In this document: piece after piece, positions 48,669 through 49,654 of the stretch
Layout of the letters: each line of letters starts with the position of its first letter
Numbering within the stretch: the first letter of the stretch is position 1
Assembly: GCA_964371595.1 (NCBI GenBank)
Contig: CAYJNJ010000003.1
Location: 21,094-85,093 of the forward strand
Direction of reading: 5' to 3'
Origin: an uncultured Bacteroidales bacterium
Lineage (GTDB): Bacteria; Bacteroidota; Bacteroidia; Bacteroidales; JAGOPY01
Length of the DNA stretch: 64,000 nt
Position numbers and translations under genes: made by a program
The notes under the pieces: generated by a model
Databases searched by the model: none
Seen by the model: only the letters and a program-made list of their open reading frames with translations
What the model was told of the DNA's origin: nothing

Positions 48669-49376
48669 TTACGATCCCCAGCTTTCACGGTCAAGGCTCC
48701 GGTACTGGATAGCCTCGGCCAGGTGTTCGGTGAGGATTGGACTGCTGCCGTCAAGATCAGCTATGGTACGGGAAACTTTCAGGATACGGTTGTAGGCCCT
48801 GGCGGATAAATTGATCCTTTCCATGGCATTCTTCAGCAGGATGTGTCCTTCTTCCCCGATCGCACAGATGGCATGCAGCTTTTTAGAAGGGATCTGCGCA
48901 TTGCAATGGACGCCATGGCTACCTTTAAAGCGCTGTTCCTGGATTTTCCTTGCCCTGATCACCCTCTCCCTGATCGTGCCGCTGCTTTCCGAACTATTGA
49001 AATTGGTCAGCTCCCTGAACGGTACCGGGATCACTTCGACATGAAGATCGATACGGTCCATAAGCGGGCCTGAGATCTTGTTCAGGTATTTCTGGACTAT
49101 TCCGGCAGAGCAGGCGCAATCCTGTGTGGGATGGTTGTAATAGCCGCAGGGACAGGGATTCATCGCTGCTACCAGCATGAAATTGGCCGGGAACTCTATC
49201 GCCGACCGGGCCCTGCTGATCGTGATCACGCGCTCTTCCATCGGCTGGCGCAATACCTCCAAAACTGAGCGCTTAAACTCCGGCAGTTCATCCAGGAACA
49301 GCACCCCGTTCTGCGCCAGCGATATCTCGCCGGGCTGCGGAAAGGACCCGCCGCCCACCAGGCCTGCATCAGTGAT
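48669..49376 (-). pseudogene. comM: 3' fragment of comM/yifB (Mg-chelatase-like AAA+ competence protein) truncated by prophage insertion
   Basis: [19 protein letters not shown] (Walker B), AAMNPCPCGY and a C-terminal Mg-chelatase-C-like tail. Similarity continues upstream to [11 protein letters not shown], then is lost at about 49,377. The Walker A half is absent. Confidence 0.75.
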
Positions 49377-49399
49377 AAATATATTTGTTGTGGTAGGAT

Positions 49400-49654
49400 T
49401 TATGTTTTAGCAATGCGCCAGATCCTAACTACTTTTTCATCTCTACGGATAGTGAAAGCGAAATCTGGGTTATTCTTTGAAAATGTCTTTGAAGCTTGGT
49501 GAAGGGAAGAATATACACTTTTTGAATTATCACCTTTAGCTAGCCTAATAGAGAAACTATTACCAATTTTCATTTTGATAAATGGATATATGGATTCTTT
49601 ACCATTTGTCCTATTAGGAATAGGAATATTTTCTTCCATCTTAAATTTTTTCAT
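49400..49654 (-). CDS. Small conserved phage protein (IPxP...YPF...RIWR motif family), paralogue of 49983..50255
   Basis: NIPIPNRTNGKESIYPFIKMKIGNSFSI...VRIWRI aligns with the 90-aa ORF on the other strand. Confidence 0.5.
   Translation of the reverse strand: MKKFKMEENIPIPNRTNGKESIYPFIKMKIGNSFSIRLAKGDNSKSVYSSLHQASKTFSKNNPDFAFTIRRDEKVVRIWRIAKT

Follow-up and report, generated by a model that had tools for sequence, protein, structure and literature searches.

The stretch of DNA analysed here (the window, 64,000 nucleotides of contig CAYJNJ010000003.1 from an uncultured Bacteroidales bacterium) contains the 3' part of the host gene comM/yifB, which encodes the ATPase ComM, joined directly to the DNA of an AT-rich tailed phage. 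The junction, around position 49,370, has the anatomy of a prophage end, with one half of a phage attachment site (attP) set against one half of a host attachment site (attB) located in comM. The features on which the argument is based are the following, with positions in the window.

48,669-49,370, minus strand: 3' remnant of comM/yifB, from Asp280 (D280) to the C-terminus and stop; host (B') side (translation, Pfam, tblastn).
49,367-49,371, minus strand: TGATG (CATCA on the plus strand), the sole block common to the attP of relatives and the comM attB (sequence comparison).
49,369-49,370, minus strand: putative crossover dinucleotide GA (TC on the plus strand), positions 1 and 2 of the codon for Asp280, which follows the HHTIS motif (attP symmetry and junction comparison).
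49,371-49,394, minus strand: phage attP half-site (P arm) ACCACAACAAATATATTTATCACT, read toward the crossover (match to the attP of relatives).
49,371-64,000, plus strand: prophage early/replication arm and start of the packaging module, 27% G+C, continuing past the window.
49,400-49,654, minus strand: first prophage gene, DUF7303-like, 84 amino acids (aa) (Pfam PF23978, E 3.5e-8; PHROG 10287).
62,143-63,765, plus strand: terminase large subunit (Pfam TerL_ATPase and TerL_nuclease; PHROG 9, E 3.5e-125).

Translation of the minus strand over 48,669-49,463 gives a ComM/YifB frame that is open down to its stop. The initial annotation had described this frame as the C-terminal ~235 residues of ComM, cut exactly at a break in base composition, and translation, Pfam, tblastn and the G+C step all agree with it. 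The part encoded by the host comprises the last 233 residues, D280 onward, of a ComM/YifB ATPase that has 512 aa in the intact reference; the I and T preceding D280 are coded by the phage arm and not by host DNA. Pfam matches on the remnant cover positions 85-203 of the 207 in Mg_chelatase (E 7.5e-55) and all of Mg_chelatase_C (E 7e-34); the ChlI domain is missing, and so are ATPase positions 1-84 with Walker A. Using tblastn with an intact 512-aa Bacteroidales ComM, residues 278-512 were aligned at 74% identity, and no match to residues 1-277 was obtained in the window or in the 10 kb past it. The break at D280 falls between Walker A (from residue 221) and Walker B (from residue 302), so that the ATPase core is split and only Walker B is retained.

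Of the ComM/YifB domain set (ChlI/Lon-like, AAA+ with Walker A and Walker B, Mg_chelatase_C) the open reading frame (ORF) in the window carries only a part, and it is best read as a fragment of a family member rather than as a functional member. The GTG start annotated at 49,358 is only an artefact of the ORF caller, and the short ComM ORF is better labelled a gene fragment than a 229-aa ATP-binding protein. No frameshift or internal stop interrupts the remnant, which shares 90% identity with the intact relative P0001 and 87% with the truncated ComM P0003. Since the remnant is undecayed and this close to an intact relative, the insertion is probably either recent or maintained.

The G+C fraction is 0.463 over 1-49,368 versus 0.270 over 49,371-64,000, and the step is confined to a single 100-nt bin at ~49,350-49,450. 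A search for local repeats around the junction found nothing, and there are no tRNA genes anywhere in the window.

The DNA beyond the step belongs to a tailed phage, as the initial annotation had proposed from the sequence. The ORF at 49,400, which it had taken for a phage ORF ending beside the comM break, encodes a phage-associated protein of the DUF7303/PHROG 10287 type. The public contig containing the window region is NODE_87 (ENA ERZ13693045), of which L002 is a phage-side piece, and on it at least 24.4 kb of phage sequence is known (to window-equivalent 73,765). The comM remnant occupies 285,711-286,400 of NODE_87, and from there the phage extends to lower coordinates. Past the terminase gene, L002 encodes a portal, S78 protease, HK97 capsid protein, connectors, tail tube and tape measure (profiles Phage_portal, Peptidase_S78, Phage_capsid, Phage_connect_1, Phage_HCP and Phage_tail_2, together with a 613-aa tape-measure homologue), which is the canonical HK97-type gene order of tailed phages with siphovirus morphotype.

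The phage has no near relative among those in culture. Against IMG/VR relatives its terminase shows 78-79% identity, against that of any deposited phage at most 35%, a search for tape-measure homologues gave relatives at 44% identity or less, and megablast of the phage arm against deposited phages returned nothing. In tblastx comparisons it is collinear with L093, L099 and L103. The IMG/VR sequences L012 and L093 have a terminase that is 78% identical and early genes homologous to those of the window phage, the early genes of L103 are collinear with the window from 61.3 to 54.5 kb, and the tail genes of L099 are 47-80% identical at the amino-acid level to the tail genes that follow the window.

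These relatives provide the attP that is only half present in the window. On the comM strand the window reads ACCACAACAAATATATTTATCACT-GA-TGCAGGCCTGG, i.e. an arm and then comM in place of the second arm. The arm is identical in 23 of 24 bases to the recombinase-distal attP arm of L099, L100 and L101, and in 22 of 24 to that of L103-L105. The intact attP is ACCACAACAAATATATTTATTACT-GA-TGTAGCGTATTTATTTGTTTTGGTGT in L100 and ACCACAACAAATATTTTTATTACT-GA-TGTAACAC... in L103. In L099-L101 it sits ~40 bp upstream of the gene for a large serine recombinase (LSR) with Resolvase, Recombinase and Zn_ribbon_recom domains, and a GA-centred, palindrome-like site is found ~40 bp upstream of the LSR gene of L012 as well (AATCACCACACACCAAATTACTTTAACT-GA-TACAATAGTAATTTATGTTGTGGTGATT). 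The attP sites are palindrome-like, having 38-42 of 62 positions self-complementary with GA as the centre. The window arm taken together with these relatives thereby displays the imperfect inverted arms, the central dinucleotide and the position beside a recombinase gene that characterise an attP. An ACCAC box lies 24 nt from the crossover in the window, and a CACC-like box is present at 24 nt in all eight half-sites compared, which represent four LSR types.

Identity between the window and the relatives ends right at the outer edge of the arm. Such a sharp edge is what a recombinase-binding half-site would give, and not what general homology would. A 28-mer of the arm (at most 5 mismatches) had no other occurrence in the 1.66 Mb of sequence compared. 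Scans of IMG/VR with a 21-mer of the arm, with a degenerate 28-mer and with the predicted N-side junction carrying a TTTTGGT box retrieved nothing, and the predicted second arm was not found within the window.

The LSRs of the relatives have 526 aa (L012), 510 aa (P0144, in L099 and L100) and 509 aa (P0143, in L103); P0144 is 67% and P0143 66% identical to the L012 enzyme, and identity to any LSR in deposited phage genomes is at most 28%. The contigs carrying them were found as two homologue sets, L099-L102 (P0144) and L103-L105 (P0143). On the contigs of the relatives that were read, the LSR gene is the only one with a recombinase-domain match. In L099, at 6,242-6,330, the attP core looks tandemly duplicated (TTATTACTGATGTAGCGTATTTATTTGT occurs twice). 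The same phage has a single copy in L100 and L101; the second copy in L099 either stems from the assembly or is a true duplication around the crossover.

The same GA breakpoint is used in at least nine other Bacteroidota loci. At C-side junctions (L003, L004/L005, L008 and L035) the DNA keeps GATGC and diverges directly upstream. Several ComM homologues begin at the same residue (P0108 ...GRTV|DAGL, P0032 ...NSVT|DAGL, P0002 ...QIIP|DAGL) where intact ComM proteins read HHTIS|DAGL, and P0114 and P0003 begin slightly inside, at GGG. To look from the N-side, GTDB species representatives were scanned with the N-terminal part of ComM and 80 loci were checked. Breaks were found in four of them: L021 (the cultured Mucilaginibacter aquatilis), L035 (a 1.79-Mb contig), L041 and L077. 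Three of the four read HHTIS+E, meaning that GA of the Asp codon is kept before the sequences diverge. An LSR gene (Resolvase, Recombinase, zinc-ribbon) abuts the junction in L003, L021 and L035, and several LSR lineages that use this comM dinucleotide are only 25-33% identical to one another.

L035 contains the complete arrangement, with a full insert of 6,364 bp between both halves of comM, and the ends of the insert share 8 bp (AGTGATGT). The attP reconstructed from it has perfect inverted arms of 12 bp and 42 of 62 positions self-complementary around GA. When the insert was deleted in silico at GA, an uninterrupted ComM of 515 aa was obtained, so at this locus the target halves flank the element and are restored exactly by its removal.

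A pattern derived from the arm as a prediction of N-side junctions (HHTIS codons, GA, N17 and TTGTGGT) retrieved L096 and L098 from JGI metagenomes. In these, the 5' half of comM (ChlI and Walker A, 295 aa) ends at HHTIS-GA and runs on as TGTAATAGTTATATTTGTTGTGGT; the insert side has 33% G+C and the host side 50%, a gap like that in the window. The three other matches of the two pattern scans were chance matches within one unrelated sequence.

The junction can now be placed precisely. The intact attP sites of L012, L100 and L103 and the attP rebuilt from L035 are all symmetric about GA, and GA is retained at N-side junctions elsewhere (HHTIS+E) as GATGC is at C-side ones. Comparison of the attP of L100 and L103 (..TTACTGATGTAG..), the intact comM in L009 (..CAGTGATGCCGG..) and the window junction (..TCACTGATGCAGG..) leaves TGATG as the only block shared by the L100 attP, the intact gene and the window. 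What the initial annotation observed holds in all details but the coordinate; its position of 49,374-49,380 has to be moved by 4-10 nt, to 49,369-49,370. It had also proposed to look for a direct repeat of 49,360-49,400 at the prophage ends. With only TGATG common to attP and attB no informative direct repeat is expected, and since the enzyme class is that of the LSRs the ends should share ~5 bp (TGATG) instead.

The intact attP of the relatives and the repeated breakage of comM at one dinucleotide in other Bacteroidota together support the proposal of a prophage attachment junction. The break is at a recurrent site of site-specific recombination rather than a chance break or an assembly join. 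In an assembly chimera the assembler would have fused an AT-rich phage contig to a bacterial contig, and the abrupt 19-point G+C step and the origin of the sequence in a metagenome assembly would both suit such a fusion. It is nevertheless extremely improbable, because the join is built exactly like a recombination site, which a chimera would not produce: it sits on the crossover of an att site of known type, with a complete phage half-site beside the host gene, and the host gene is cut at a dinucleotide used by other elements, including those of the cultured isolate L021 and the 1.79-Mb contig L035. A host/insert contrast in G+C like that in the window is also seen at L096. Furthermore, the neighbourhood is present on several contigs of different sizes and in two non-identical sequence versions. 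The ComM fragment (represented by P0004), the adjacent 871-aa host protein and the terminase are each on three contigs (50-200 kb and 0.2-1 Mb classes), and the window differs from NODE_87 at 19 positions elsewhere and at none across the junction.

A second alternative concerns the enzyme. A tyrosine integrase with a longer core, or a Tn7-like transposase, could have made the insertion, the likeness to an LSR site being coincidental. Islands of the AbaR/Tn6022 family are Tn7-like and move by transposition with a target duplication of 5 bp. In Acinetobacter baumannii they are found in the same gene, and records there split yifB/comM at ~286/287, a few codons downstream of D280. That family's use of comM, and the lack of a recombinase of any kind in the 24 kb of prophage read, speak for another enzyme. 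The window break is at D280 itself, though, the insert is a phage, and there are no transposition genes (no TnsA/B/C-like genes) in the gene lists of those 24 kb, so that the element does not have the makings of a Tn7-like AbaR/Tn6022 island. In relatives the counterpart of the arm, identical at 23 of 24 bases, belongs to an attP that immediately precedes an LSR gene, the LSR is the sole recombinase-domain gene on the contigs of these relatives that were read, and the inverted repeats and central dinucleotide of the attP are typical of LSR sites. The complete insert in L035, moreover, shares only 8 bp at its ends and is excised exactly at GA. Another enzyme class is thus highly improbable.

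It is very likely, from the sequence comparisons above, that a serine-integrase prophage integrated in comM at the Asp280 GA, and we infer that its far end still has the LSR gene, with the 5' half of comM next to it. Directly observed are the cut in comM, the step in G+C, the phage nature of the insert, the attP half-site, the intact version of that site beside an LSR gene in relatives and the use of the same dinucleotide at other loci; the model builds on these. In this model, a temperate siphovirus-type phage (27% G+C) would integrate in comM of a Bacteroidota host (46% G+C) by conservative site-specific recombination, carried out by the phage LSR. The attP would be a palindrome-like site of ~50 bp and the attB the DNA coding for HHTIS-D(A/V)(G/A)LVGGG of ComM, both being cut at the central GA and then rejoined. 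At the window junction, the recombinase-distal arm of the attP (49,371-49,394) would be joined to comM from D280 on. As the window arm corresponds to the recombinase-distal, early-gene-side arm of the relatives, and the gene order in the window agrees, the recombinase gene should lie at the other end of the prophage, beside the 5' half of comM. This far junction is predicted to consist of comM codons 1-279 (ending HHTIS), GA, an arm resembling TGTAGCGTATTTATTTGTTTTGGTGT and an LSR gene reading inward, beyond which the tail and lysis genes would lie on the opposite strand, convergent as in L099.

Walker A is split from Walker B, and ComM would therefore be inactive in the lysogen. Excision by the LSR together with a directionality factor would restore comM exactly. 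The predicted restored attB is the comM 5' end followed by GA and TGCAGGCCTGGTGGGCGG, and the predicted attP of the circular phage is ACCACAACAAATATATTTATCACT-GA-second arm.

Several observations weigh against this interpretation. No recombinase of any kind, no second attP arm and no 5' half of comM was found in 49.4-73.8 kb, the part of the prophage that was read. The arrangement of genes beside attP is not the same throughout the group, the LSR gene of L012 being on the early-gene side. The 8 kb next to the N-side junction of L096 and L098 contain no LSR gene. The ParB-methyltransferase gene of the window contains two in-frame stops, and this copy may not be fully functional. Finally, temperate phages and their hosts do not usually differ by 19 points in G+C.

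Some of these points would also fit a real junction whose prophage is defective or rearranged. In that case the prophage would have lost its recombinase gene, or comM its 5' half, or both; excision would not occur and comM would be permanently dead. The far end is not in the sequence read, the ParB-methyltransferase gene has two in-frame stops in the window copy and none on the public contig, the insert of L096/L098 has the same arm type and carries a type I restriction-modification system instead of an LSR, and rearranged comM fragments occur in L004. On the other side, all 38 genes called over 52.6-73.1 kb on the public contig are open. Over the stretch that can be traced the structural module is complete, and the comM remnant, with its open frame and its 90% identity to an intact relative, does not look decayed. 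We therefore regard a defective prophage as unlikely and retain an LSR prophage with an exact mode of excision as the preferred explanation.

The rearranged locus L004 (GCA_020444515.1, JAHLKX010000009.1) contains, at 5,031-10,693, two comM 3' fragments of 110 aa and 230 aa, each then followed by a pair of genes for a histidine kinase and a LytTR regulator. The arm at the junction of L004 (..TGTACTGTTCGTAACA..TCACT-GA) and that of L005 (468-1,217), which is from another sample, are homologues. No recombinase is visible, and the arrangement in L004 looks like a segmental duplication around an old insertion.

Other short ComM homologues were also seen (e.g. P0064 on a 4.86-Mb contig, P0076, P0082 and P0013). 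Many are 284 aa long, their first residue being the Met within the Walker A motif GKTMLAKRL, and others start at DVKGQENI or carry unrelated fused N-termini, some of them on very long contigs. comM may thus be interrupted at further positions in Bacteroidota. The excess of short ComM matches is probably due for the most part to contig-edge fragments and to a small length penalty in the scoring.

Among the closest known systems is that of Wolbachia phage WO of the sr1WO group, in which a large serine recombinase integrates the phage into the Wolbachia magnesium chelatase gene and the gene halves flank the prophage (PMC9203015). Both cases involve a tailed temperate phage, an LSR and a ComM/YifB-type Mg-chelatase-like gene as target. 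They differ in the host, which is an endosymbiont of the Alphaproteobacteria for phage WO and a member of the Bacteroidota here, and in the phage, since WO belongs to another lineage than the AT-rich siphovirus-type phage of the window.

The classical serine integrases, the model for the mechanism, include those of phiC31, Bxb1, TP901-1, A118/U153 and SPbeta (SprA), and some of them split host genes, as in Listeria comK and Bacillus spsM and sigK. Similar to these are the three-domain LSR (in the relatives here), an attP of ~50 bp with imperfect inverted arms and a 2-bp crossover, the very short identity between attP and attB, and insertion in a coding sequence that is undone by exact excision. 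The differences are the target gene and the host phylum, and that LSR lineages of only 25-33% mutual identity use one comM dinucleotide.

A further likeness is found in the Acetoanaerobium phage ANDSL2_ph1 (PP197248.1), where an LSR gene lies directly against a ComM fragment. Its host is one of the Clostridia, and its ComM fragment passes HHTIT and ends at NPCPC, i.e. at another point in comM. At 15,550-17,710 of this record (L106) a ComM fragment of 186 aa (~residues 184-354) overlaps the 3' end of the phage LSR gene. The record is labelled a complete phage genome, comes from culture supernatant and has the ComM fragment inside it. This suggests either a second, different LSR site in the comM of Clostridia or captured host DNA.

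The initial annotation had named comM as an insertion hotspot in other phyla. The gene is a hotspot indeed, though not only there, as it is one in Bacteroidota too. The window contains a genuine prophage-host junction, now precisely placed, and very probably a further case of LSR insertion in a comM-type gene. Our literature search found no paper linking comM of Bacteroidota with serine recombinases. It is of some additional interest that several divergent LSRs across Bacteroidota insert at one and the same dinucleotide of a conserved gene, and that phage and host differ by 19 points in G+C. Temperate phages of 27% G+C are not often found stably paired with hosts of 46% G+C, and a comparable gap recurs at L096.

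ComM is described as a hexameric helicase that drives branch migration in natural transformation of Gram-negative bacteria (bioRxiv 10.1101/147660; PMC6158740). With ~5% of the sampled species representatives having comM broken at this site, the frequency with which natural transformation is completed could be affected. A wider proposal would be that the Asp280 GA is a phylum-wide and possibly cross-phylum landing pad that divergent LSRs have kept or converged on, and that the phages and small islands sitting there act as a reversible on/off switch for ComM in Bacteroidota; in this full form we consider it unlikely. The landing-pad half is largely shown by the sequence comparisons, with breaks in 4 of 80 representatives and with one dinucleotide to which at least nine different insert arms are joined. 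The switch half, in which ComM-dependent recombination and natural transformation would be controlled as by the Listeria comK prophage, is speculation, compatible with the undecayed gene halves and the exact excision at L035. For genetic engineering, LSRs with an attB in a nearly universal conserved coding sequence are candidate broad-host-range tools, of which the phylum has few, and the attP sequences of L100, L103, L012 and L035 have been recovered for use as predicted sites.

The remaining features of the phage arm in the window are the following.

49,983-50,255, plus strand: diverged DUF7303-like paralogue of the first prophage gene, 90 aa (PHROG 10287).
50,865-51,473, plus strand: MjaI-type restriction endonuclease (Pfam RE_MjaI, E 7e-68).
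51,448-52,521, minus strand: N4/N6 DNA methyltransferase (Pfam N6_N4_Mtase, E 6e-44).
56,780-58,039, minus strand: ParB_N-methyltransferase gene (Pfam/PHROG profile matches).

The two DUF7303/PHROG 10287 paralogues point away from each other, and in the gap between them the 100-nt bins at 49,600-49,799 have 9-16% G+C and a 61-aa ORF is found at 49,753-49,938. The ~5 kb adjoining the att site (the restriction-modification pair and small ORFs) have no counterpart in L103 and are at the usual position of cargo genes. The early arm also has a sigma-factor-like gene (profile matches).

Over 38,669-64,000, the window and NODE_87 differ by 18 substitutions within 73 bp (57,625-57,697) and one at 60,325, and are otherwise identical. 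The 73-bp patch falls in the linker of the ParB_N-methyltransferase gene, which is open in NODE_87 (419 aa) and has its two in-frame stops in the window version (...RKA*IAKKIAN*NKG...). An inversion of the patch was ruled out by a check of the sequence, and the sequence searched showed neither a template-like repeat nor a reverse transcriptase. On the plus strand NODE_87 has A at 10 of the 18 patch positions, and the window at none of them.

Beyond the window, GIY-YIG and HNH endonuclease genes lie within the head and tail modules, at 12,934-13,476 and 17,128-17,445 of L002 (window-equivalent 65,076-65,618 and 69,270-69,587), and the HNH gene is conserved in the relatives L006 and L099.

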